DNA from: a virus
IMG/VR virus record: IMGVR_UViG_3300009551_000005
Span: 36,494 to 100,493 of that record
Strand: one strand, 5' to 3'
Length of the DNA stretch: 64,000 nucleotides
Shown here: positions 17,176 to 58,264 of the stretch, piece by piece
How positions within the stretch are numbered: position 1 is the stretch's first letter
Layout of the letters: every line of letters begins with the position of its first letter
Translations under genes and position numbers: made by a program
The notes under the pieces: generated by a model
What the model was told of the DNA's origin: nothing
Databases searched by the model: none
Seen by the model: the letters and a program-made list of their open reading frames with translations, nothing else

Positions 17176-17252
17176 GTGAAAAACCTGTTGCGCTATAGCG
17201 CAGGTGGTTTATAGTTTCCCTTATGAGCGGCGCTGAGGGCGCGAAAGGGGAA
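17176..17252 (+). promoter_or_regulatory. Sigma70-type promoter cassette copy A with a palindromic operator
   Basis: TTGCGC(17188)-N16-TATAGT(17210); A-tract UP element; TGCGCTATAGCGCA palindrome over the -35; near-identical copy at 35.9 kb. Confidence 0.8.
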
Positions 17253-35902: not shown

Positions 35903-36002
35903 GTGAAAAAACTTCTTGCGGTATAGCGCAGGAGGTTTATAGTTTCCCTTGTGAGCGGCGGTGAGGTAGACCGCTAAAAGCGCTGAGGGCGCGAAAGGGG
36001 AA
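35903..36002 (+). promoter_or_regulatory. Sigma70-type promoter cassette copy B
   Basis: TTGCGG(35916)-N16-TATAGT(35938); shares GTTTATAGTTTCCCTT and GCGCTGAGGGCGCGAAAGGGGAA with copy A. Confidence 0.8.
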
Positions 36003-39201: not shown

Positions 39202-40635
39202 ATGGCTGCGACGACGACCGAAGAGACGGCGACCAAGAAGGCGACCAAGAAGAGCACCCAGAAGCCCGGCGAGAGCATCATGGGGCCGCTCGTGTGTGGG
39301 ATTCACCGCGACATGACGGTGCGCGAGGTCCTGGTTGAGAACAGCGGGCTCACCGAGGAGACCGCGGCCAGCTTGCCCACCGAGGCGCTCATCCAGCTCG
39401 TGACGCGGAAGGTGCTTCGCGATTGGCCCAAGGATTCCAAGGACCTGACGCAGTGCGTGCAGTGCAAGTCCATCTCCAACAAGGAGTACGACAACTGCCT
39501 TTTCTGCGGCTCCGAGGACACGGTGAACGAGATCCTCTCGGAGAAAGTCATCGACGACTTCAAGGCCGCGTGTGAGGCTGGGGTCGCGGCTTCCGTCGGT
39601 GATCAACCGACGCCGGCGAGGGAGGCCGCGAAAGGCGAGGACACGATGGGACCGAGCACGCACACGGCTCCGGCCGGGGGCAAGAAGAACGGAACAGCGA
39701 AGGCGGAGGAGTCCACTCCGAACCTTCTCGCAGGAGGATTGCCGCCGGGCGCGAAGCCCGCGGCGACGAGCACCGCGCTCGCGAAGGCGGAGCCCAAGGC
39801 GTTGGCGAAGCCTCAGACGGAGGACGATCTCGACAACGCCATCGCGAAGTTCGAGAAGCTGAAGGCCGGCGCGATGGTCTCCATCTGGGACCTCGGTGAC
39901 TACCTTCGCAACGAGATCTACGAGACGCAGCTCTGGAAGCAGCGGACCGAAGAGGTCGAAGAGAAGGGCGGCACGACCAAGAAGCCGGGCCGCTGGAAGA
40001 CGTGGGAGAGCTTCTGCAACTCGGAGCTCCAGTGCGTGCCGGCGACGGCGATGAACTGGATGCTCATCGCGAAGACGTTCACGCGGGACGACGTCGCGCG
40101 CTGGGGTCCGACCAAGCTCGGGATCCTCGCCACGGCTCCGAAGGAGGAGCTCGACCGCGTGAAGAAGAGCATGGAGGGTGGCGCGTCCGTCCGTCAGCTC
40201 CTCGGAGAGGTGAGCGACGCGAAGAAGAAGCACCCCGGCAAGGGTGGGCGCACGCTCGGTGTTTCGCGCGGCAAGTACGGCGGAGAGGCGAGCGACGCGC
40301 AGAAGGAGGCGCGCAAGGCGAACCTCCAGAAGAACGCCAACGCCGCCAAGAGCCGCGCTCTCAAGGAGGCGGAGAAGACGCCGCGCGAGGCGAAGATCAC
40401 GGTGGCCGCCATGATCGGGAAGCTCGGGCGGATGAAGTTCTACCGGACCGACGCGGTGGCGGCGAAGGCGAAGGACAAGAAGCTCGTCGCCACGAAGATG
40501 GACCACAACCCGGTGGGCATCATCGAGCTCCCCTTCCAGAAGGGGATGCACCTGGTCATCAAGCTTAAGTCCGTCGGTTCCGATGGTGGGTGGTGCGGCG
40601 ACGCTGAGTTCAAGCGCATCGAGGAAGAGGAGTAG
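39202..40635 (+). CDS. Large hypothetical protein with zinc ribbon and Lys/Ala-rich regions
   Basis: CVQC...CLFC; WKTWESFC motif of ParB-associated DNA-binding-type domains. Confidence 0.65.
   Translation: MAATTTEETATKKATKKSTQKPGESIMGPLVCGIHRDMTVREVLVENSGLTEETAASLPTEALIQLVTRKVLRDWPKDSKDLTQCVQCKSISNKEYDNCLFCGSEDTVNEILSEKVIDDFKAACEAGVAASVGDQPTPAREAAKGEDTMGPSTHTAPAGGKKNGTAKAEESTPNLLAGGLPPGAKPAATSTALAKAEPKALAKPQTEDDLDNAIAKFEKLKAGAMVSIWDLGDYLRNEIYETQLWKQRTEEVEEKGGTTKKPGRWKTWESFCNSELQCVPATAMNWMLIAKTFTRDDVARWGPTKLGILATAPKEELDRVKKSMEGGASVRQLLGEVSDAKKKHPGKGGRTLGVSRGKYGGEASDAQKEARKANLQKNANAAKSRALKEAEKTPREAKITVAAMIGKLGRMKFYRTDAVAAKAKDKKLVATKMDHNPVGIIELPFQKGMHLVIKLKSVGSDGGWCGDAEFKRIEEEE
39593..39613. 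repeat. Degenerate palindrome copy 8 (in-frame 3-nt deletion)
   Basis: CCGTCGGTGATCAACCGACGC, encodes SVGDQPTP. Confidence 0.7.
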
Positions 40636-40676: not shown

Positions 40677-43313
40677 ATGCCCGAGTTCGTGAACGGCTTC
40701 GTCCGCGGCGGTTCCATTCACCTCCTCACGCGCACGCCGTCCGGTGTGCAGACCACGACCTACCCAGCCGAATACGTCGCCTTCGTTCGGCACGCAGATC
40801 TCCCCGGAGATCTCGAGCGCCATCTCTCCGCCTCGCAGTTCGTCTCCAGCGCCCGGCGCGAGGGCGCGTTCCTTCGCCTCGGCTTCCGCTCCCACGCTTT
40901 CCGCGACGCGCTCTGTCAGTCTCCCAAGTCACCGCTCGCGCAGCACGGCATCGCCACCTACGAGGGCGACGTCGACCCGGTGCGCCGCTGGCTGACGGAC
41001 CATCCAGAGGCGACCATCCAGAGGCCGCGCCGTTGTTGGCTCGACATCGAGACGGACTCCCGCGTGCCTGCGAAGCGCGCGAAGGAGGGAGCCGCGCGCG
41101 TCCTGTCCTGGTCCGTCATCGCGGACGACCCGCGGCGCGTCCGCTTCGACGTCCTCAAGGCAGACACCGACACCGCGGAGGCGGAGCTCCTCGGCCGTTT
41201 CTGGGAGGCGGTCGCTGACCTCGACCAGGTGCTCGCGTGGTTCGGTGACATCTTCGACTTCCCCGTCCTCAAGCTTCGCTCCAAGGCGCGGCGCGTCCGC
41301 TTTGACGAGGACCGTCTGCTTTTTCTCGATCACGCAGAGCTCTTCGAGCGGCACAACAAGAACAGCTCGCAGTCCGGCGAAGAGAAGCAGTCGATGGCGC
41401 TTCAGAACATCGCTGTGGCTTCCGGCGTCGCCGGCAAGCTCGATGAGGAGGGGCTCATCCCCGGCAAGGCTATGGGCGCGCAGACCTGGGAGATGTGGGA
41501 GGCGGGTGGCGAGTGGAGAGACCGCCTCGTGCGATACATGGTTCGCGACACGGAGACCATGCGTCGCATCGAGGGGAAGAACGGATACGTGGCGCTTCAG
41601 TCCACGATCTGCGAGGCGTGCACGCTCTTCGGTGACTCGAGGTCGCTCAAGCCGACGCGCCAGCTCGACGCGTTCATGCTCCGCTTGGGCGCAGCGCGCG
41701 GGCAGCGCTTCCCCACGCGGCGGTTCTTCGACGAGGACGTTGCCGACCAGCACGACCAGTTCAAGGGCGCCTACGTCATGGATCCCAAGGTGCGGGGCAT
41801 CGGCAAGGACATCCACGTCGTCGACTTCTCGCGCATGTATCCGGCGAACATCCTCACGTTCAACATGAGCGCCGAAACGAAGAAGCTCGTTCCGGTGACC
41901 GGTCCGATCCCTGAAGGGTGCTGCCGCACGCCCACGACGGGCGTCGGGTTCACGACCGCTGAGCCGGGGCTTCTCGTCGTCGCGTTGAAGGAGCTCCTCC
42001 GCCTCCGCAAGGAGTGGTCCAAGAAGCAGGCATCGTTGCCGCCGGGCACGACGGATTGGGAGGACGCTGGCCGCCGGTCGGTCGCTTACAAGGTCGCGGC
42101 CAACTCGTTCTACGGCGTCGTCGGCTCGCCGTTCTCGCGCTTCTTTGACCGCGCCATCGCGGAGTCGGTCACGCAGACGGGCGTGTGGCTCCTCAAGATG
42201 ACCATTCACGCCGCGGAGGAGCGCGGGTGGAAGGTGGTCTACGCGGATACCGACTCGTGCTTCGTGCAGGGTCCCACCGATGAGGAGTTCACGGCGTTCG
42301 CCAAGCATTGCAACGAGGTGCTCTATCCCGAGGCGCTCAAGAAGTGCGGCTGCGTCGAGAACGCGGTCGAGATCGCGTACGAGAAGAAGTTGAGCCGCGT
42401 CGTGTTCGTCTCCGCGAAGCGCTACATCGCGAGCTACGCGCACTACAAGGGCAAGGCCGCCACCTCCGACTCCAAGCCCGAGATCAAGGGCATCGAGTAC
42501 AAGAGAGGCGACGCCAACAAGCTCGCGCGTCGCCTCCAGGCGCAGGTCATCGATCTCCTCGTCGGCGGTCTGAAGGTGGTGGAGGGAGCGCCGTCTGATG
42601 ATCTCTCGCGCTACCACGAGCTCGTTTCCAAGATGCGCTCCCACGTGCTCGACGATGCGCTGCCGCTCGACGAGGTGCAGATCGCGCAGAAGATGACGAA
42701 GGATGCCGGCGACTACAAGAACGCTCCGCCACACGTGCGCGTCGCCAAGATGCTCGCGGAGCGTGGCGAGGACGTTCAGGAAGGCGCGCGCATCGCGTAC
42801 GTGGTGACCGACGGCTCTGTCTCGCCGATGACCGTCATCCCCGCCATCGACTACACCGGGCAGGAGGCGGACCGGCACTACATCTGGGAGGACAAGGTGT
42901 TTCCGCCGACGCGCGCGCTCCTCGAGGCCGCGTTTCCTGATGAGCCGTGGGAGCCGTGGGCCAAGACGCGTCCACCCAAGGTGCGCTCCAAGAAGAGCGC
43001 CGAAGGACAACTCGAGCTCGGGCAGCAACCGACGCTTTCTCCGCTGCCCAAGCCCTCGGAGAGTGCCGTCGGTGATCGATCACCGACGGTGAAGAAGCCG
43101 AAAGAGTTCGTGGCCGTGCTCGACCAGTCCAGGCTCCCCGGGCGCGATCTCACCGTGGTGCGCGACATCGTGGCGCGTCACCCAGGTGACCGACCGCTCG
43201 TTCTGGACCTTGGGCTCGAGGGAGGACGGCGCGCGAAGATGAGCACCATCTTCACGTGCGACGGGAGCGAGGCGCTGGCGGAGGAGCTCAAGAGGTTCCG
43301 CGCGGCATCGTGA
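40677..43313 (+). CDS. polB: Family B DNA polymerase
   Basis: Exo I DIET, Exo II FDF, DFSRMYP, KVAANSFYG, YADTDS, KRY. Confidence 0.95.
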   Translation: MPEFVNGFVRGGSIHLLTRTPSGVQTTTYPAEYVAFVRHADLPGDLERHLSASQFVSSARREGAFLRLGFRSHAFRDALCQSPKSPLAQHGIATYEGDVDPVRRWLTDHPEATIQRPRRCWLDIETDSRVPAKRAKEGAARVLSWSVIADDPRRVRFDVLKADTDTAEAELLGRFWEAVADLDQVLAWFGDIFDFPVLKLRSKARRVRFDEDRLLFLDHAELFERHNKNSSQSGEEKQSMALQNIAVASGVAGKLDEEGLIPGKAMGAQTWEMWEAGGEWRDRLVRYMVRDTETMRRIEGKNGYVALQSTICEACTLFGDSRSLKPTRQLDAFMLRLGAARGQRFPTRRFFDEDVADQHDQFKGAYVMDPKVRGIGKDIHVVDFSRMYPANILTFNMSAETKKLVPVTGPIPEGCCRTPTTGVGFTTAEPGLLVVALKELLRLRKEWSKKQASLPPGTTDWEDAGRRSVAYKVAANSFYGVVGSPFSRFFDRAIAESVTQTGVWLLKMTIHAAEERGWKVVYADTDSCFVQGPTDEEFTAFAKHCNEVLYPEALKKCGCVENAVEIAYEKKLSRVVFVSAKRYIASYAHYKGKAATSDSKPEIKGIEYKRGDANKLARRLQAQVIDLLVGGLKVVEGAPSDDLSRYHELVSKMRSHVLDDALPLDEVQIAQKMTKDAGDYKNAPPHVRVAKMLAERGEDVQEGARIAYVVTDGSVSPMTVIPAIDYTGQEADRHYIWEDKVFPPTRALLEAAFPDEPWEPWAKTRPPKVRSKKSAEGQLELGQQPTLSPLPKPSESAVGDRSPTVKKPKEFVAVLDQSRLPGRDLTVVRDIVARHPGDRPLVLDLGLEGGRRAKMSTIFTCDGSEALAEELKRFRAAS
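43066..43089. repeat. 24-bp palindrome copy 9 (perfect), in the PolB C-terminal linker
   Basis: Encodes AVGDRSPTV. Confidence 0.97.
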
Positions 43314-49237: not shown

Positions 49238-49687
49238 ATGAGCCGCCGGGGTGCGAAGATCGCCGTCGGTGATCGATCACCGAAGGTGCGGAGAGTCGCG
49301 GTGGAGAAGGATCGCGACCTCGTGACGATCGGTCCCAAGTCGCTCGTGTGGGGAGGGACGCTGCAAGATCTCGTGTTGGCGGCGGGCTTCACGAGTCCTG
49401 AGCGGTTCTGCGAAGGGAAGTTCTTCCGCCTTCGTCCTCCGCGCGGGAACGCGGAGAATGCGCGCGCCACGGCGGCGACGCTCAAGCACTTCGGAGCGCT
49501 GGGCGTGCAGGTGGAGTTGCCCGAGGAGGAGCACGCGGCGATCGGACACGAAGAGGAGCAGGGCTCACTCATCCTCTCGATGTCGCTCCGCGATGCGGTG
49601 ATGCAGACGGCGGAAGCGGCAAACACCGCGGACCGTCCCAAGATGAAGGCCGCGCTCGAGCGTTCGCTCGCGGCCGCGAAGATCTGA
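49238..49687 (+). CDS. Hypothetical protein, possibly a detached SbcD C-terminal domain
   Basis: Between sbcD and sbcC; sbcD ends right after its nuclease domain. Confidence 0.5.
   Translation: MSRRGAKIAVGDRSPKVRRVAVEKDRDLVTIGPKSLVWGGTLQDLVLAAGFTSPERFCEGKFFRLRPPRGNAENARATAATLKHFGALGVQVELPEEEHAAIGHEEEQGSLILSMSLRDAVMQTAEAANTADRPKMKAALERSLAAAKI
49263..49286. repeat. 24-bp palindrome copy 11 (1 mismatch), CDS N-terminus
   Basis: CCGTCGGTGATCGATCACCGAAGG, encodes AVGDRSPK. Confidence 0.95.
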
Positions 49688-49697
49688 GGAGGCGAGG

Positions 49698-50060
49698 ATG
49701 AACTTCGAAGGATGGGTCGCGGACGTGCGCGTGCGCAGGGACAACGCGCTGAGGAACGCTGACCGGCACAAGGAGCGTGGGTTCGAGGGGCTCCTCGCCG
49801 CGGAGCTCGCGAACTGCCGCGCGATGGCCTACGAGAATGTGCTCGAGCAGGTCACGGTTTTTCAGCAGAAGTGGCAGAAAGAGCCGTTCACCGATGAGGA
49901 GAAGCTCGAGAAGTTCCTCGGTATCCTCAGGAAGGCGCGCGCGGCGCTCGTCACCTACCCGATCAGCAACCCGAGCTTCGCGCACGAGGAGCTCCGCGTT
50001 GTCCTCGAGTCCATCGAGATGATGACGTGGCTCATTCACGCGCAAAGGAAGCCGTCGTGA
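49698..50060 (+). CDS. Hypothetical protein
   Basis: GGAGG RBS, helical. Confidence 0.65.
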   Translation: MNFEGWVADVRVRRDNALRNADRHKERGFEGLLAAELANCRAMAYENVLEQVTVFQQKWQKEPFTDEEKLEKFLGILRKARAALVTYPISNPSFAHEELRVVLESIEMMTWLIHAQRKPS

Positions 50061-52030
50061 TCGTCGGGTTGCGCCTTGAGAACTGGCGCTGCTACCGCGG
50101 CGAGCAGGAGATCCGTCTCGCGCCCAAGGCGTACGGCGTGCACGCGCGTGTCGGGGGAGATGAGGACCGCTCCAACTGGGCGGGTAAGAGCGCGCTCTTC
50201 GAAGCCGTCGACTTCTCGCTCTTCGGGCGTCTCAACCCGGACCGCGGAGACCTCGTTGACGGGTGGATCTCGCGCGGCGAGAGCAAGGGCATGGTCGCAC
50301 TCCTCCTCGAGGCTGACGGCGAGCAGTTCCTTGTCGAGCGCGGGAGGAAGGGTAGGAAGGGGTACGTGAAAGCCGCGCGCCGCGGTGCGGAAAAGGTGGC
50401 CGAAGGAGACGAGGCAGAGCGCGAGATCGCGGCGTGGCTCGGGCTCTCCAAGGAGGACTTCCTCGCGTGCGCGTACTTCCGACAGCGTCAGACCGCGCGC
50501 CTGGTGCTCATGGAGTCGGGTGACCGGATGAAGGTCGCATCGTCGTGGTTCGGACTCGAGCCGTTGAAGGTCGCGGAGACGCACGCGCGTGACGAGTATC
50601 GCGGTCGCGCGGAAGAAGAGGCGAAGCTCATTGCCACCGCCATGGAGCTCGAGCAGAAAGCTGCGCAGGCGCTCGGAGTTGAAGTTGGAAAGGACCTCGC
50701 GCAGATGGCGGCCGAGGCGCGTGTTGCGTTGGAAGGCGTGGACAAGGACATCGCCGCGCGAGAGGTGTCCAAGCAGGCGGCGTTCAAGCGCGCGGAGGCG
50801 GTCAACGGCAACAAGGGCGTGCGCCTGGCGGTGGAGAGCATCAACAAGCTCCGCATTGAGGGGAAGGCGCTCCGCGCGAAGGTCGACGCCGCGGACAAGG
50901 TGGCGCTCGAGAAGGAACGAGATCTCCACCGTGCCAACGCTGCGCAGCTCCTTCAGGAGGTCTCGCCGCTTGTCCGCGACGTGGAACAGAAGAACCTCCT
51001 CATCCGCGGCGGATGGGGCGGGCAGTGCCCTGTCGCGCTCTTCCCTTGCCCGGCGGCGCAAGAGGTTCTGGCGCGGAAGGAGAGCGCGTCGAAGTTCGTC
51101 GAAGAGAACCATCCCAAGGTCGCAGCGCTTCGCGCTCGCCACGCGGAGGAGGAAGCCAAGGCGCGCTCCGCGGAAGCCAGGCTTCAGGAAGTCATCCGCG
51201 ACGAAGGACGACTTCAGGAGATGCGATCGCGCGTGAAGGAGCTCATTCCGCTCGAGGAGCGCGCGGAGGCACTGGCGAAGGAAGGCCTCCTCGAGGACGG
51301 TCCGGCGTTCGAAGAGCTCGAGGCCGCAGGCAAAGCGCTTCAGACGGCGCGCGAGGCACGTGAAGTCATCGCCTACCGCCTCGCGGTGGCTGAGGACGCG
51401 CTCAAGAAGGCAGCCGAGGCGCGCGAGAAGGCCAAGGCGATGCGCGCGGAGGCGCGTGCGTCACACGAGGCTGCGCAGGTGGTCCTGCTCACGCGCCGGA
51501 CCGTGGGCGAGGCGGCGTTCGGCGAAGTGGAGCGCGGCGCCAACGCGAGGCTCGCGCGGTGCGGGGTCGATCTTCGCGTGCGCGTCGCGTGGGAGCGTGA
51601 GGGGCGCGACCCGGCGCGCTACTGCCTCGAGTGCGGCTCTCCATTCCCATCTTCGCGCGCGGTGAAGACGTGCACGCTCTGCGGCGCGGACCGGGGCAAG
51701 AACCTCATCGACGAGCTGGAGCTCCATCTGTCCGACCACTCCGGCGCGGCGGAGGACATGGGCGGTCTTGCCGTGCAACTCGCGGCGGCCGAGTACGTGG
51801 CCAGGAAGCGCGCCTCACGGTGGCAGGCGGTCCTCGTCGACGAGCCCTTCGCGCAGTGTGACGTTGCTCACCAGCGCGCCGTCGCGCGCCATCTTGCGGA
51901 GGTTCTCGCCAATGGACACTTCCGTCAGGCGCTCGTCACGGCCCACCAGGCGCAGGTTCTCAACGCTCTCCCGGGGCGCATCGAAGTGGCGCGGCAAGGG
52001 GAGTGGAGCACCATGAGGGTCGCATCATGA
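50057..52030 (+). CDS. sbcC: SbcC/Rad50-like SMC ATPase
   Basis: LENWRCY, SNWAGKS, coiled coil with CPV hook, VLVDEPF Walker B, TAH. Confidence 0.88.
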   Translation: MIVGLRLENWRCYRGEQEIRLAPKAYGVHARVGGDEDRSNWAGKSALFEAVDFSLFGRLNPDRGDLVDGWISRGESKGMVALLLEADGEQFLVERGRKGRKGYVKAARRGAEKVAEGDEAEREIAAWLGLSKEDFLACAYFRQRQTARLVLMESGDRMKVASSWFGLEPLKVAETHARDEYRGRAEEEAKLIATAMELEQKAAQALGVEVGKDLAQMAAEARVALEGVDKDIAAREVSKQAAFKRAEAVNGNKGVRLAVESINKLRIEGKALRAKVDAADKVALEKERDLHRANAAQLLQEVSPLVRDVEQKNLLIRGGWGGQCPVALFPCPAAQEVLARKESASKFVEENHPKVAALRARHAEEEAKARSAEARLQEVIRDEGRLQEMRSRVKELIPLEERAEALAKEGLLEDGPAFEELEAAGKALQTAREAREVIAYRLAVAEDALKKAAEAREKAKAMRAEARASHEAAQVVLLTRRTVGEAAFGEVERGANARLARCGVDLRVRVAWEREGRDPARYCLECGSPFPSSRAVKTCTLCGADRGKNLIDELELHLSDHSGAAEDMGGLAVQLAAAEYVARKRASRWQAVLVDEPFAQCDVAHQRAVARHLAEVLANGHFRQALVTAHQAQVLNALPGRIEVARQGEWSTMRVAS

Positions 52031-52728: not shown

Positions 52729-53307
52729 ATGCCTCGCGCCGTCGGTGATCGATCACCGAAGGGCCCGCACGTCATCGGGCTCGACCTCTCCAAGAACGCG
52801 CCGGCGGCGGTGGCAGTGCCCGCGACGTTCGCCGCCGGCGACGGCGCACTGGCTTGGGGCACGGTGAGGAAGTGGAAACTCGAGGCTCAGGACGACACGC
52901 TCGTGTGGCGCGAGAGGAACGTGCGCGAGGGGCTTCGGTCCTTCCTCGTCTCGCTCGAGCGCGAGGGCTGCAAGATCCAGGGTGTCTACGCAGAGGACTA
53001 CGCGCACACGCAGATGGCTCGGCGCGGCGGGTGGATGCTCTGCGAGGTCGGCGGCGTCGTGCGCGTGATGCTCGCGGAGGTGTTCGGGCAGACCATGCGG
53101 ATGGTGGTCGCCGCCAGCGCTCGCAAGCTCCTTCTCGGCAAGGTCCCGCGGGAGAAGACGTCGGGCATGCCGGTGAAGGAGTACGTCTTTCGCCGGCTCC
53201 GTCAGATGCGGTCGGGGTTCACGGACTTCGATCACGCTGACGCGTTCGTGGTGGCCAACTACGGACTCCACGATCTCGGACTCCCCTGTCTCGCGTCTGA
53301 GGAGTAG
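52729..53307 (+). CDS. RuvC-like Holliday junction resolvase
   Basis: IGLDLS, YAED, DHADAF RNase H-fold acidic residues. Confidence 0.75.
   Translation: MPRAVGDRSPKGPHVIGLDLSKNAPAAVAVPATFAAGDGALAWGTVRKWKLEAQDDTLVWRERNVREGLRSFLVSLEREGCKIQGVYAEDYAHTQMARRGGWMLCEVGGVVRVMLAEVFGQTMRMVVAASARKLLLGKVPREKTSGMPVKEYVFRRLRQMRSGFTDFDHADAFVVANYGLHDLGLPCLASEE
52739..52762. repeat. 24-bp palindrome copy 12 (1 mismatch), CDS N-terminus
   Basis: Encodes AVGDRSPK. Confidence 0.95.
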
Positions 53308-53317
53308 ATTCCTCCAC

Positions 53318-54070
53318 ATGGCGAGGAACGAGAAGGCACGGGAGAAGTCTGCGAAGAAACCGCCCACGCCCAGGGAAGATGGACCGCGCATCGTCGGCGA
53401 CCCGGTGAGGACGCCGCTCGACGACGTGGAAAAGAACCCTTGGAACCCGAACGAGATGACCGCGTTCGAGCAGGAGTCGCTGAAGGACGGTCTTCAGCAC
53501 GACGGCTGGCTCGCTTCGTTGGCGCTCACGATCTGGGGCACCGACGAGAAGGGGCGGAAGAAGAACCTCATTATCGACGGTGAGCACCGGTGGACCGTCG
53601 CGAAGCAGCTCGGGTTCAAGGAAGGTCCGATGGTCTTCCTTCACGGCGTGACCGAGGCGCAGGCCAAGGCGCTCACGATCAAGCTCAACGCCAAGCGCGG
53701 CTCTCCCAACGAAGAGAAGCTCAAGATCATCGTGAAAGAGCTCGAGTTGAAGCTCCAGGTGCCGAACCTCTCGCTCGACCTCGGCATCGAGCAGGAGAAG
53801 CTCTCGATGATGCTGGCCGCGCCTCCCCTGGTCCTCGAGGGAGAGACGCCGCCGGAGAAGAACGGAACACCGCCGGGTGAGATGCCCTCGGGCATGACGT
53901 CGCACGTGCGCATGGTGCAGCTCTTCTTCAACGAGGAGCAGCACAACGAGTTCCTGGCGGCCGTGAAGAAGCTCGGCCCCATCTACTTCAAGAAGGATCC
54001 CAAGAAGCAGACGTCGACCGACATCACCATGGAGGCGATCCGTCGTGCTGTCGCTGCAACTGAGAGCTGA
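53318..54070 (+). CDS. ParB/Srx-like N-terminal domain protein with putative C-terminal ribbon-helix-helix
   Basis: NPWNPNEM, LIIDGEHRW, LNAKRG; C-terminus VRMVQLFF-NEEQHNEFLAAVKKL...STDITMEAIRRAV. Confidence 0.8.
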   Translation: MARNEKAREKSAKKPPTPREDGPRIVGDPVRTPLDDVEKNPWNPNEMTAFEQESLKDGLQHDGWLASLALTIWGTDEKGRKKNLIIDGEHRWTVAKQLGFKEGPMVFLHGVTEAQAKALTIKLNAKRGSPNEEKLKIIVKELELKLQVPNLSLDLGIEQEKLSMMLAAPPLVLEGETPPEKNGTPPGEMPSGMTSHVRMVQLFFNEEQHNEFLAAVKKLGPIYFKKDPKKQTSTDITMEAIRRAVAATES

Positions 54071-54947
54071 GGTCAACGACAAGTCCGTCCAAGCGCTCCT
54101 CGGCAAGTCGGCGGACAAGAAGGACTACAGCGTCTCGCTCACCAACGACGTCTCGGTGTTCAAGGCCAACGGGCAGCGTCTCATCACGCTCCTCCGCGGT
54201 GCCATTCCCGAGGACGAGGCGGAGAGCGCATACCCGTTCCTCCACTGGCTCCGGCACTACCGGACGATGAACCGCGGCAAGTACAGCGGGAAGGAACGAT
54301 TCAAGAAGCTCAAGGGTGACGGGACGATCTCCAACACGAACCACGCGCAGCCGGTGCGTTCGGCCATCGCCGGGTTCTTCGACCGCTACCCGCGCTTTCC
54401 GTACTGCCGCGAGACCGCGTTCGTCACCGAGAAGCCTGAGGAATGGGGCGCGTGCCTGCCGCTCATCCAGCGTGCCGGAGACCTCTTCAAGCTCCACGTC
54501 GCGGACCGGTACAAGGCGCAGCTCGACGCGGCGAAGAAGACGCACCCCGCGTACATCATCAAGGGCACACCGTTCACCACGGTGACCATCAACAACTGCG
54601 TCGCCGGCGGGTATCACACCGACGCCGGCGACTATGGTCCGGGCTTCGGCGTCATCGCGGTCCTCCGCCGCGGGAACTACAAGGGCTGCGAGCTCGTCTT
54701 CCCCAAGTACCGTTGTGCCGTCGATCTCCAGGACCGCGACGTCATCCTCTTCGACCCTCACGAGGTGCACGGCAACGTGCCTTTCGCGGACCAGGAGGGC
54801 GAGGAGGGCAAGGACTGGGAGAGGATCTCGATGGTCTTCTACTTCCGCGCCAAGATGCTGGAGTGCCTCTCGCCGGAAGAGGAGCTCGCGCGAGCGAAGG
54901 CGCGCGGCGCCCTCGAAGCGCCTGAAGAGGAGCTCCCGCAGCCGTAG
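54045..54947 (+). CDS. TET/JBP-family 2OG-Fe(II) dioxygenase
   Basis: PFTTVTINN..GYHTDAGD (HxD), HEVHGN, RISMVFYFR; GFFDRYPRFPYCRET. Confidence 0.88.
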   Translation: MLSLQLRAEVNDKSVQALLGKSADKKDYSVSLTNDVSVFKANGQRLITLLRGAIPEDEAESAYPFLHWLRHYRTMNRGKYSGKERFKKLKGDGTISNTNHAQPVRSAIAGFFDRYPRFPYCRETAFVTEKPEEWGACLPLIQRAGDLFKLHVADRYKAQLDAAKKTHPAYIIKGTPFTTVTINNCVAGGYHTDAGDYGPGFGVIAVLRRGNYKGCELVFPKYRCAVDLQDRDVILFDPHEVHGNVPFADQEGEEGKDWERISMVFYFRAKMLECLSPEEELARAKARGALEAPEEELPQP

Positions 54948-54963
54948 CGTCATCAGGGGAGCC

Positions 54964-55851
54964 GTGAAAGCCAACTCTCTGTTCAAGGACTTCTGCGCCT
55001 TCGCGTGCGGTCAGCTCGCGAGCGGTGACATCGATCCCACCTACCCCGTCCTGAAGCGCTTCTACCGAGTGGAGAAGCTCTCGCGCGAGCAGGCGCTCTG
55101 GCGGACGGTGCTCTATCTCGCCTGGTACGACCTCGGCTCCGCGGAGCGCATCTGGCGCAAGTACCCGAATCCGTTCCTGCCGACGGATTCGGAAGTGCGC
55201 GGGCTTTCGACGGGCACCGAGCGCCGATCGTTCCGGGGCAACACCAAGGTGCTCGACTTCCTGGGTGCGCTCCTTTCGCGCGCATCGCTCGAAGGAGGCT
55301 CGCTCGAGAAGTGGGTCGACTCGTTCTTCGTCGACGATCCGACGAAGGGGTGGGACCGCGCGCGCGAGGAGCTTCAGGAGCTCGCGTTCGCGGGACCTTG
55401 GGCGAGCTACAAGTGGGCCGACCTCCTGAAGCACGTGCACGACGCGCCTATCACCGCGAGCGACATCGGCGTCGGCGGACGCGGAGAGACCGCGGGGCCG
55501 ATCCCGGGGATGGTGCGTCTCACCGGGCTGCCTTGGCAGGAGTGCGCCAACGACGTGAAGAAGCAGGTCGCGCTGCTCAAGCGCGCGCAGGATGCTGGCG
55601 TGCCCTTCAACGGTCTCGACCAGCTCGAGACGGCGCTCTGCGACTTCAACTCCTTGTGCAAAGGCGGCTACTACGTCGGGCACGACATCGACACGCAGAT
55701 GAAGCATCTCGAGCACGTGAAGGACCGCGGACTTTGGGATGCGCGCGTGGTTTTCGAGGACAGGTTCCGCGGCGAGGTCTCCGGCGGATGGTTCGGTGTG
55801 CGCAAGGAGCTGAAGACGCTCTACCGCGATCAGAAAGTGCTCATCACTTGA
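54964..55851 (+). CDS. Amino acid:DNA transferase (aGPT-Pplase2-like, glycosylase fold)
   Basis: GDIDPTY, TERRSFRG, GPWASYKWADL, ETALCDF..GYYVGHDID. Confidence 0.8.
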   Translation: MKANSLFKDFCAFACGQLASGDIDPTYPVLKRFYRVEKLSREQALWRTVLYLAWYDLGSAERIWRKYPNPFLPTDSEVRGLSTGTERRSFRGNTKVLDFLGALLSRASLEGGSLEKWVDSFFVDDPTKGWDRAREELQELAFAGPWASYKWADLLKHVHDAPITASDIGVGGRGETAGPIPGMVRLTGLPWQECANDVKKQVALLKRAQDAGVPFNGLDQLETALCDFNSLCKGGYYVGHDIDTQMKHLEHVKDRGLWDARVVFEDRFRGEVSGGWFGVRKELKTLYRDQKVLIT

Positions 55852-56738
55852 TTCACCTCGAGGGCATGGGTATCGTGGGCTCCATCTTGGCGTGGCACCT
55901 CCTCAACGCCGGGCGCTCCTTCACTTGGCACGACATCGACGCGAAGGTGCGCGCGTGGACTGCGTCGACGGGCGCTATCTACCCGAGCGGAGACGTCTTC
56001 GACGCGATGAACTACGAGGTCTGGTCGGACTGGTGCCACGGTGAAGCTCCGTGGGAGCGCTTCATCGGCCGGCACTACGAGACCTCGGGCTGGTGGTACT
56101 GCACGAAGAGCGCTCCCCACGGCGCCAAGGGCAAGCCGGTGGCGAGGTTCGGCATGCTGCACCGCGGGCCAGCGCCGTCGATGCACTTCAACGCGCAGAG
56201 CTTCGTGCCCGCGACGCGTGCCTACTTCCAGAAGATGCGCCGCGAGGGAACGCCGTCGGGCGCGCGCAAGGTCATCACCCACGGCTTCAGTCAGCGTCTC
56301 GACCACTACGTGTGGGGCTGGACGCGGAAGGTGAAGCTCGATTGGACAGCGCTCCGTCCGTACGAACGACACGAGCGCGCGGCTGTCTATCTCCGGCGCG
56401 GCCGCTTCGTCATGGCGTACGCGTACCCCATCCCCGGTGAGCCTTGGTGGTACGCGGGTTCGAACCTCATCGTGCAGAAGAAGGCGAGATCGTTGGTCAT
56501 CCCGCCGAAGTACGAGACGTGGAAACGGAACTTCGAGGAGCTCTCCGGTGGCGCGGTGCGCATCGTGGAGGAAGGTCCGTTCATCGAGGGATGGCGACCC
56601 GCCGGGGCAGATCTCGACGGAGACCTCGTGCGCGAGATGGACGGCGCGCTCGTCCTCAAGCCGTTCTGGAACAGTGGCATCCGTCACTCCCCGTTGACGA
56701 TGCGCGCGGCAATGGACGCGCTCGGAGGTGCAAGATGA
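55848..56738 (+). CDS. FAD-dependent oxidoreductase/lyase (DAO-like)
   Basis: TTGA-coupled start; GMGIVG dinucleotide fold, AWTASTGA, EGWRP, NSGIRHSP. Confidence 0.78.
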   Translation: MIHLEGMGIVGSILAWHLLNAGRSFTWHDIDAKVRAWTASTGAIYPSGDVFDAMNYEVWSDWCHGEAPWERFIGRHYETSGWWYCTKSAPHGAKGKPVARFGMLHRGPAPSMHFNAQSFVPATRAYFQKMRREGTPSGARKVITHGFSQRLDHYVWGWTRKVKLDWTALRPYERHERAAVYLRRGRFVMAYAYPIPGEPWWYAGSNLIVQKKARSLVIPPKYETWKRNFEELSGGAVRIVEEGPFIEGWRPAGADLDGDLVREMDGALVLKPFWNSGIRHSPLTMRAAMDALGGAR

Positions 56739-57244
56739 TCGTGTTTCTCGTCGGAGCTCCTGGAGTCGGAAAGACCACGCTGGCGCGTCAGCTCATCGGA
56801 CCGGACGCGTACCTGGTGCCCAAGCCGAAGTGGACGGTCGGCAAGATCGTCGCCGCGGGTCACTATAACGGCGGCACGTTCGATGGCGCGGACACGGTGC
56901 CCTACAACGGCGTCGAGGACTGCCTTCGTTTCTGGGAGCAGCAGCTCGAAGGCAAGGACACGCTTTTCGACGGTGACCGCTTCTCGCATGAGAAGGTCGT
57001 GAAGTGGGCGCGCGAGAAGACGCTCCTCGTGAAGTGCATCTATCTCCATGCGCTGCCGGACACGCTCGCGGCGCGGAGGAAGCAGCGCGGCTCGAATCAG
57101 AACGAGACATGGCTCAAGGGGCGCATGACCAAGGCCGCGAACTTCCAGAACCTCTTCGCATCGAGGGACATCGTGCGCGTTCACGCAGACGTCTCGCCGG
57201 AGGAGATCTACAAGCGCGTCGTCGGAGAGTTCGGGTGGCGCTGA
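56735..57244 (+). CDS. P-loop kinase, 5-hydroxymethyluracil-DNA kinase-like
   Basis: GAPGVGKTT, FDGADT, DGDRF, RGSNQNETWLKGRMTK. Confidence 0.78.
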   Translation: MIVFLVGAPGVGKTTLARQLIGPDAYLVPKPKWTVGKIVAAGHYNGGTFDGADTVPYNGVEDCLRFWEQQLEGKDTLFDGDRFSHEKVVKWAREKTLLVKCIYLHALPDTLAARRKQRGSNQNETWLKGRMTKAANFQNLFASRDIVRVHADVSPEEIYKRVVGEFGWR

Positions 57245-57603: not shown

Positions 57604-58264
57604 CGTGGCGAAGCAGGAGAGCGGCGGGATCGAATGCTCGCGGTGCGGCGAGAGGACCGACGTGGTGAACGAGCTCGGGTTCTGCCAGCGGTGCATGCAA
57701 ACGCTCGCTGGCGCGCCGGTGGTGGGCGCTGAAGTCACGGAGAATGCTTCGACGTTCGAGTGGGCGACCGCTCAGGTGGGCAAGCACCTTTTCCACCGAG
57801 GGCACGGCTTCGTCGGCGAGGTAGTCGGTGCCATTCGCGCCGGTGAGCACAAGGGGCCCAACGGTCGCCCGGTGACTGCACCGGTCCTTCTTTTCAAGGG
57901 CGGTCACACGATGGTCGCCAACGCGCGCGCGGTCCAAGAGCTCACCGTCGAGGGCGTGACGCTCGTCAACAAGACCGCGGAGTGGATCGGCCTCGTTTTG
58001 AACCGTTCCATGCGGCTCGGCGGAGCGCTGGGCATCGAGCCCGAAGACGCCATCAAGCTCCTCACCGCCGTCATCGCGTCCCAAGCGCGTCACCTTCAGG
58101 CGACGGAGCTCCCCGCGCGCGAGCCTCCCGTCGATCCGCTCATCCCGGATGTCCCCGGTGTCGTTCCCACCGCTCCCGTCGGTGATCGATCACCGACGGC
58201 GTATCGCTTCAGCGAAGAGGAAGCCGGGCCGAGCTCAGACAGAAAGCGTGAGGAGACGACGTGA
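57593..58264 (+). CDS. Hypothetical protein with N-terminal zinc finger
   Basis: CSRC...CQRC; GGAGG RBS. Confidence 0.65.
   Translation: MTTDVAKQESGGIECSRCGERTDVVNELGFCQRCMQTLAGAPVVGAEVTENASTFEWATAQVGKHLFHRGHGFVGEVVGAIRAGEHKGPNGRPVTAPVLLFKGGHTMVANARAVQELTVEGVTLVNKTAEWIGLVLNRSMRLGGALGIEPEDAIKLLTAVIASQARHLQATELPAREPPVDPLIPDVPGVVPTAPVGDRSPTAYRFSEEEAGPSSDRKREETT
58176..58199. repeat. 24-bp palindrome copy 13 (perfect), CDS C-terminal tail
   Basis: Encodes PVGDRSPTA. Confidence 0.97.

Follow-up and report, generated by a model that had tools for sequence, protein, structure and literature searches.

Phage 5mYOX enzymes of clade C1 were recently described as thymine dioxygenases that need an adjacent ParB-like protein on double-stranded DNA (dsDNA) (O'Toole et al., PNAS 2026, PMC13229309; bioRxiv 10.1101/2025.08.14.668559). 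ParB/5mYOX co-expression converted 25–35% of the T residues in the chromosome of E. coli, a purified pair acted in vitro on dsDNA of lambda and phiX174, and ParB mutants in putative residues for nucleoside triphosphate (NTP) binding still activated the enzyme; a stable complex was not trapped, and the authors left the mechanism open (PMC13229309). Here we analyze a five-gene operon at positions 53318–57244 of a 64,000-nt stretch of DNA (the window, to which positions refer) from IMG/VR record IMGVR_UViG_3300009551_000005, a complete 100,493-bp phage genome with direct terminal repeats, of which the window covers bases 36494–100493. The operon is probably devoted to post-replicative thymidine hypermodification of the ParB-dependent T-dioxygenase type, with a ParB-like activator that would work independently of any site, and a 24-nt palindrome dispersed over the genome would be a separate feature of the phage lineage. 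The original prediction had combined the two, proposing that the ParB-like protein loads at the palindromes as at parS sites and so licenses modification of the phage's own DNA only.

All five genes lie on the + strand. The first (53318–54070) encodes the ParB-like activator, assigned by AlphaFold2 (AF2), Foldseek, a PDB profile and PHROGs. The second (54045–54947; Pfam PF12851, E = 4e-21) encodes a TET/JBP-family (5mYOX) dioxygenase, a predicted oxidase of T to 5-hydroxymethyluracil (5hmU) on DNA. It is followed by an amino acid:DNA transferase (AADT, formerly aGPT-Pplase2; ∼54949–55851; Pfam PF18724, ADDT, E = 2e-9), whose start codon, 2 nt past the TET stop, was taken from the reading frame, by a conserved putative tailoring protein (∼55866–56738) and by a member of the P-loop nucleotide kinase 3 family (Ploopntkinase3; 56735–57244; PF18751, E = 1.4e-7, with AAA_18 and AAA_33), predicted to be a 5hmU DNA kinase.

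As in systems of the 5mYOX176/ParB176 type, the ParB-like gene immediately precedes the TET/JBP gene and is translationally coupled to it. The two share 26 nt when the dioxygenase starts at GTG 54045, a start backed by its N-terminus, VLSLQLR, which agrees with the V-x-VQLRS of relatives, so that the overlap reported in the original prediction holds. The catalytic set of the dioxygenase is intact, with H191-x-D193, H242 and R260 falling on invariant columns of a 40-sequence alignment, and the protein carries a 26-residue extension past the invariant Cys274, its last conserved cysteine; among described enzymes, a C-terminal extension is exclusive to the ParB-dependent subclass, which is also linked to P-loop kinases and AADTs (PMC13229309). 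Both neighbors are present here, and the likeness extends to the lack of a C5 methyltransferase, for which the whole phage genome gave no PF00145 match; in a genome without that enzyme, the dioxygenase is likely to act on thymine. The present operon differs from the described systems in being a new sequence, that of an uncultured, high-GC phage of 100 kb, and in its setting among dispersed palindromes, which are absent from the discussion in PMC13229309.

Within the operon, the TET/JBP enzyme would oxidize thymine in dsDNA to 5hmU, the P-loop kinase would phosphorylate the 5hmU base, the AADT would swap the phosphate for an amino-acid-derived group, and the fourth enzyme would tailor the product. 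In the phages ViI, M6 and SP10, 5hmU reportedly comes from a pre-replicative hydroxymethylase. Thymidine hypermodification through a 5hmU DNA kinase and aGPT-Pplase/AADT is known from the work of Lee et al. (2018, 2021; PMC8989533), and Gordonia DR-cluster phages (PMC9302106) and Rhodococcus phage Tonitrus (PMC11955845) have annotated ParB-TET-Pplase-kinase clusters of five genes. With these the operon shares its five-gene layout and the PF18751 kinase and PF18724 transferase, both predicted to act on 5hmU in DNA, while the chemistry that follows 5hmU is our inference; unlike the pathway of Lee et al., the predicted 5hmU here comes from oxidation of T in DNA, and one of the operon's genes has no match to any known family. 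That gene, the fourth (55866–56738), matched neither a Pfam nor a PHROG family, and is syntenic in a relative (G1, 51% identity). Its product begins with MGIVGSILAW, which resembles the dinucleotide-binding GxGxxG motif, and may be a flavoenzyme. Since this enzyme matches no family, the final modified base may be one not yet described.

The architecture of the ParB-like protein also follows that of the 5mYOX-associated ParBs, which consist of a nucleotide-binding domain, a short helix-helix, an unstructured linker and a C-terminal domain (CTD), have no obvious DNA-binding domain, and are closest in structure to ParB of M. xanthus (MxParB) and C. crescentus (CcParB) (PMC13229309). In the AF2 model (pLDDT 88), a ParB/Srx N-domain with the CTPase fold spans approximately residues 30–145, two short helices occupy 151–166, a low-confidence or disordered linker runs from 167 to 197 (∼30 residues versus ∼50 in the described proteins), and the CTD covers 198–249. 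Although the Pfam ParB_N match is weak (E = 0.004, below cut-off), PHROG ParB-like families match the protein with E-values down to 8e-18, a profile of 40 homologues retrieves M. xanthus ParB, Noc and Spo0J from the PDB (E = 2e-6 to 6e-4), and Foldseek with the AF2 model retrieves ParB of C. crescentus and of M. xanthus along with Noc and KorB (E = 2e-6 to 1e-5), the entries 7bm8, 7bnr, 7ng0, 8qa9 and 6sdk together covering E = 2e-6 to 3e-5. In HMMER alignments, IIDGEHRW corresponds to IIAGERRW of ParB box II, keeping the E and the second R while the first R is replaced by H; TIKLNAKRG, a putative nucleotide-binding segment, aligns with LVENLQRA of box III, and a family-invariant WNPN falls in the box I region. 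The ParB/Srx N-domain with IIDGEHR, as first read from the sequence, is thus upheld by the agreement of PHROG, PDB profile and AF2/Foldseek results, and the gene is the sole ParB_N in the phage genome.

What the protein appears to have lost, judging from alignment and model, is the domain with which ParB reads DNA. The helices at 151–166 align to the ParB helix-turn-helix (HTH) (HMMER), the remainder of the DNA-binding domain is absent, and the protein therefore has no complete HTH domain between its N- and C-domains as canonical parABS ParBs do. The segment that forms the recognition helix in MxParB, KERSTVANALR, reads IEQEKLSMMLA here, and the remnant is acidic family-wide, with E, D or Q where ParB has K, R, S, T or N. 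The CTD is modeled as an extended segment and helices at 206–223 and 233–249 (pLDDT >90), so that the strand-helix-helix pattern of the original prediction is present. Its assignment to the ribbon-helix-helix (RHH) class fared less well: searched alone, the CTD gave no meaningful Pfam match, no PDB sequence match and nothing significant in Foldseek, and VIA-align returned weak matches (Z ≤ 3.9) in which RHH proteins are mixed with basic helix-loop-helix proteins. In topology the domain is compatible with RHH. From the model, we regard it as a dimerization-type domain. The absence of a ParA, first noted for the window, extends to the whole genome, which gave no CbiA match and, for AAA_31, solely a sub-threshold match within a UvrD-like helicase.

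By analogy with ParB176/5mYOX176, the ParB-like protein would activate the dioxygenase on any dsDNA, with no loading site; mechanism and site independence are here drawn from the literature on homologues. That the protein licenses the neighboring TET/JBP enzyme, as the original prediction held, agrees with those homologues (PMC13229309), and this half of the prediction is already published and hence not new. The other half, delivery to phage DNA alone so that the host chromosome is avoided, is not supported by them: homologous pairs modify E. coli, lambda and phiX174 DNA (PMC13229309), and therefore no phage-specific loading site should be needed. A structure prediction of two ParB-like chains with one TET chain, made with alignments, gave a score of 0.31, where the mark is 0.32, and was not used as evidence either way.

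The relatives suggest a wider role for such proteins. In a relative without TET (G11; L025:9752–12290), a ParB-like gene with the same CTD overlaps a gene for a 571-residue N6/N4 DNA methylase, and the family also includes members fused to methylases, all of which fits a ParB-like protein acting as a general helper of enzymes that work on DNA bases. Two tandem ParB-like genes precede TET in G4 (L023:10001–11348) and G5 (L026:10001–11268), and in G7 a second ParB-like match adjoins the first. At three further loci (L003:723–1397, L004:2–547 and L005:2598–3284) the N-domains are too divergent for BLAST and the CTD strand, (I/V)RMVQLFFNEK, is close to the VRMVQLFFNEE of the window; in L004 and L005 the gene lies directly upstream of TET. 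We considered L004 and L005 as "CTD-only" proteins and rejected this, as a profile detects a divergent N-domain within that open reading frame (ORF). Among cultured phages, the ParB-like protein retrieved just two Pseudomonas phages in tblastn, and it was a search with the TET protein that led to cultured ParB-TET phages.

The question is then whether the palindrome belongs to this system. The window contains 14 copies of the perfect 24-nt palindrome CCGTCGGTGATCGATCACCGACGG that deviate by no more than one mismatch, versus none expected, and the whole genome (100,493 bp) has 19 core copies, or 20 with one decayed copy. The window copies, including the decayed one at 39593, span 993–61771, and we judge all of them to lie outside the modification system. 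Closest to the operon are a copy with one mismatch at 52739–52762, within the first codons of a RuvC-like gene and 556 nt before the ParB-like start, and a perfect copy downstream at 58176–58199.

To gather relatives, we searched with the ParB-like protein itself and with alignments of ParB-like and of SbcC sequences, and then fetched whole genomes. With the window's phage as G0, the core lineage comprises genomes of ∼80–105 kb that have ∼30–60 ORF matches with it. All eight core-lineage genomes examined have a dispersed palindrome of their own, four of them with TET and four without, and the consensus sequences are unrelated. The TET-bearing genomes are G0 (CCGTCGGTGATCGATCACCGACGG, 20 copies), G1 (GATTCGAAAAGCGCTTTTCGAATC, 20 copies), G4 (GATTGGAAACCCGGGTTTCCAATC, 18 copies) and G5 (GGGAACCCGGGTTCCC, 20 copies); those without TET are G7 (GAGATAACACCGGTGTTATCTC, 16 copies), G8 (ACCGCAACACGTGTTGCGGT, 30 copies), G11 (GACCAAAA-N6-TTTTGGTC, at least 16 copies) and G12 (the degenerate GGTTTGGAATCGCGCGATTCCAAACC, 9 copies), the sites of the last two having been found through gapped and mismatch searches. 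Two distant relatives that share only the replication module with G0 also carry palindromes, namely G13 (L114–L118; TGGAAACCCGGGTTTCCA, 21 copies) and G16 (L129–L134; AGTTGTCGCCCCGGGGCGACAACT, 12 copies), and neither has TET or a ParB_N match with Pfam or the family profile. At least seven TET-less relatives thus bear their own palindromes, two of them also without a ParB domain; G14 and G15 were not counted as ParB-less.

The converse decoupling is seen outside the lineage. Five ParB-TET phages have no dispersed palindrome in the sequence sampled (the whole genome of Pelagibacter phage HTVC112P, 50 of 63 kb of Gordonia phage LittleMunchkin, 59 kb of G9, and the loci L027/28 and L002), a finding that the original prediction had itself named beforehand as telling against it.

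These comparisons bear on the proposal that the ParB-like protein uses an RHH-like CTD to load at the 24-nt palindromes, spreads as an NTP-dependent clamp and brings or activates the dioxygenase on phage DNA only. It draws support from the ParB-fold N-domain, in which the E and the second R of box II are kept, from the RHH-compatible topology of the CTD, whose weak VIA-align matches include RHH centromere binders, and from the ∼20 evenly spaced palindromes, some of them intragenic like many parS sites and one of them close upstream of the ParB-like gene; some published ParB/5mYOX pairs, too, were inactive on E. coli DNA (PMC13229309). Against it stand the active homologous pairs, which work without a specific site and withstand mutation of the NTP site (PMC13229309), the palindromes of relatives that lack TET or a ParB_N match, the ParB-TET pairs of the five palindrome-free phages, and the acidic HTH remnant.

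The CTD strand adds a further argument, since it does not covary with the palindromes. The strand (V/I/A/T)RMVQL(F/Y)(F/L) recurs in G0, G1, L022, L031, L027 and the divergent L003–L005 proteins, in phages whose palindromes are unrelated or in which none was found in the sequence examined. Conversely, G4, G5 and L092 share the GGAAACCCGGGTTTCC palindrome core and their strands differ (VKPVQLKF, VVNVQLFF and VRQVQLFF). Being so conserved across phages with different sites, the CTD is probably not the reader of the palindromes. Opposite the invariant V and L, the strand would also expose M, Q and F rather than the usual polar base-reading residues. Loading at the 24-mers as parS sites is therefore not supported, given the palindromes of TET-less and ParB_N-less relatives, the lack of strand covariation and the acidic remnant, and we consider the whole proposal highly improbable.

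Another possibility is that the ParB-like protein does read the lineage palindromes, for silencing in the manner of KorB or for genome organization, and that help to TET or to methylases is a second, site-independent job. A precedent exists in KorB of RK2, a ParB homologue that acts on dispersed palindromic promoter operators and is among the Foldseek neighbors of our protein, and in all core-lineage genomes, each with palindromes, a ParB-domain gene follows SbcCD and RuvC. The likeness to ParB-parS and KorB-OB extends to the ParB-fold N-domain with its box II residues and, for the RK2 operators, to ∼20 dispersed palindromes, many at promoters. The differences are that here the HTH is incomplete and its remnant acidic, no ParA is present, and the palindromes neither co-occur nor covary with the protein as cognate sites do in canonical parABS; NTP-site mutants of a homologue, moreover, remain active. 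No recognizable DNA-reading domain is left to such a reader, G13 and G16 have palindromes without a ParB_N match, and in G7 and L029 the CTD is replaced by a zinc-ribbon-like tail and the palindromes persist. This explanation appears quite unlikely. In a variant that joins both ideas, the ParB-domain protein would load in KorB fashion at co-evolving palindromes, and adjacent enzymes (TET here, the methylase in G11) would be recruited to phage DNA marked by the clamp, making modification self-addressed; the site independence seen in E. coli would then be a bypass caused by overexpression. We rate this variant as very unlikely.

Under the reading we prefer, a site-independent activator beside unrelated palindromes, the latter would be sequence-specific binding sites of a dimeric lineage factor and, on the sequence evidence, most likely its transcriptional operator or promoter elements. 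We infer this role from their placement, which is mostly at gene 5' ends. Thirteen of the 20 G0 copies fall outside crude ORF calls, and ∼8 are followed, after 1–5 nt, by TGnTAGCCT or TAGCGT and then, 6–7 nt on, by ATG, an arrangement similar to that of a −10 box and leaderless start. In G8, 20 of the 30 copies precede a ribosome-binding site (RBS) and start codon within 60 nt, compared with a background of 14%.

Palindrome sites also hold their genomic position among relatives while their sequences are entirely different. G0, G1, G4, G5 and G11 each have a site at the polB 3' end, six genomes have one where SbcD adjoins SbcC, and seven have one upstream of the helicase; position-conserved sites of the window include those at 43066–43089 and 49263–49286, with counterparts at loci of G1, G4, G5, G8 and G11 (L007–L011, L051–L061 and L067–L079). 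With position kept and sequence changed, these are more likely to be old sites that evolve together with a trans factor than recent mobile insertions.

This also bears on the idea that the palindromes are not protein-binding DNA sites at all, but hairpins acting in RNA (for termination, processing or stability) or small mobile insertions of the repetitive extragenic palindrome (REP) or miniature inverted-repeat transposable element (MITE) kind. The palindromes do sit in short intergenic spacers, the G1 copies often starting at the upstream stop codon with an RBS next; each would form a 10-bp GC-rich stem, and the intragenic copies fall in poorly conserved linkers and termini in a single reading frame, as insertions would. 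Within a genome, however, the copies are near-identical and palindromic through the center, neither of which a hairpin requires, no T-run follows them, and the preserved positions of wholly different palindromes point to co-evolution in place rather than recent mobility. We regard this alternative as unlikely.

Dispersed phage repressor sites are known from the "stoperators" of mycobacteriophage L5 and the conserved inverted repeats of phiC31. As in those phages, tens of short, near-identical sites are spread over the genome and for the most part occupy small intergenic stretches close to the starts of genes; the palindromes differ in being perfect palindromes of 20–26 bp in apparently lytic phages of 80–105 kb, and in keeping position while sequence turns over.

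Several points weigh against our reading. The spacing of the palindromes is more even than random (coefficient of variation 0.50, P ∼ 0.001) and some copies are intragenic; even spacing would arise from operon boundaries and also from loading sites. All core-lineage genomes examined hold both a ParB-domain gene and palindromes, so that the decoupling of palindromes from ParB, as found in our genome comparison, rests on the two distant relatives, and a link between palindromes and ParB that is unrelated to TET keeps a small probability. The G13 genome is 83% complete, the family profile missed divergent ParB-domain genes of G14 and G15 that Pfam found, and very divergent ParB folds might still be present in G13 or G16. 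Among the published pairs, several with "Clade 2" ParBs were inactive in E. coli, and a missing right DNA substrate was left possible as the cause (PMC13229309). Finally, our search for the palindrome-binding factor yielded no candidate: none emerged from phyletic patterns among the relatives, no G13 protein was unusually close to those of G4 and G5, which share the G13 palindrome, the conserved uncharacterized ORFs of the replication module had no match in Pfam or PHROGs, and Sigma70_r4 gave no match of note.

The core of CCGTCGGTGATCGATCACCGACGG also appears in an unrelated 105-kb phage, G2, for which no protein in common with G0 was found. At L006:1480–1580, upstream of a gene for a YqaJ-like exonuclease, G2 has one exact copy and one with two mismatches, together with several TCGGTG half-sites.

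The phage genome has 66% G+C and nearly all of its genes on the + strand. In the window, an SbcC-like gene (50027–52030) and the RuvC-like gene (52729–53307; PHROG) precede the operon, and a ThyX gene lies downstream at ∼59.5 kb. In G1, the thyX homologue is matched in two pieces ∼820 nt apart (G1 41130–41480 and 42300–42728; locus L009), which suggests an insertion (an intron, intein or homing-endonuclease gene) that the thyX of the window lacks. The window also holds a 60-nt AT-rich repeat in two copies that are 90% identical (17179–17238 and 35907–35966); inside it, TTGCGC and TATAGT, separated by 17 nt, make up a sigma-70-type promoter close to consensus, and the repeats are probably early promoters for the host polymerase.

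Taken as we read it, the operon is a further natural example of a recently characterized class of phage thymine modification. Addressed self-modification would, if true, be a new principle, and the evidence runs against it. The palindromes have a meaning of their own for this group of phages: a lineage of 80–105-kb genomes with 9–30 dispersed palindromes, kept in position while their sequence is turned over, implies a fast-co-evolving DNA-binding factor that acts genome-wide.

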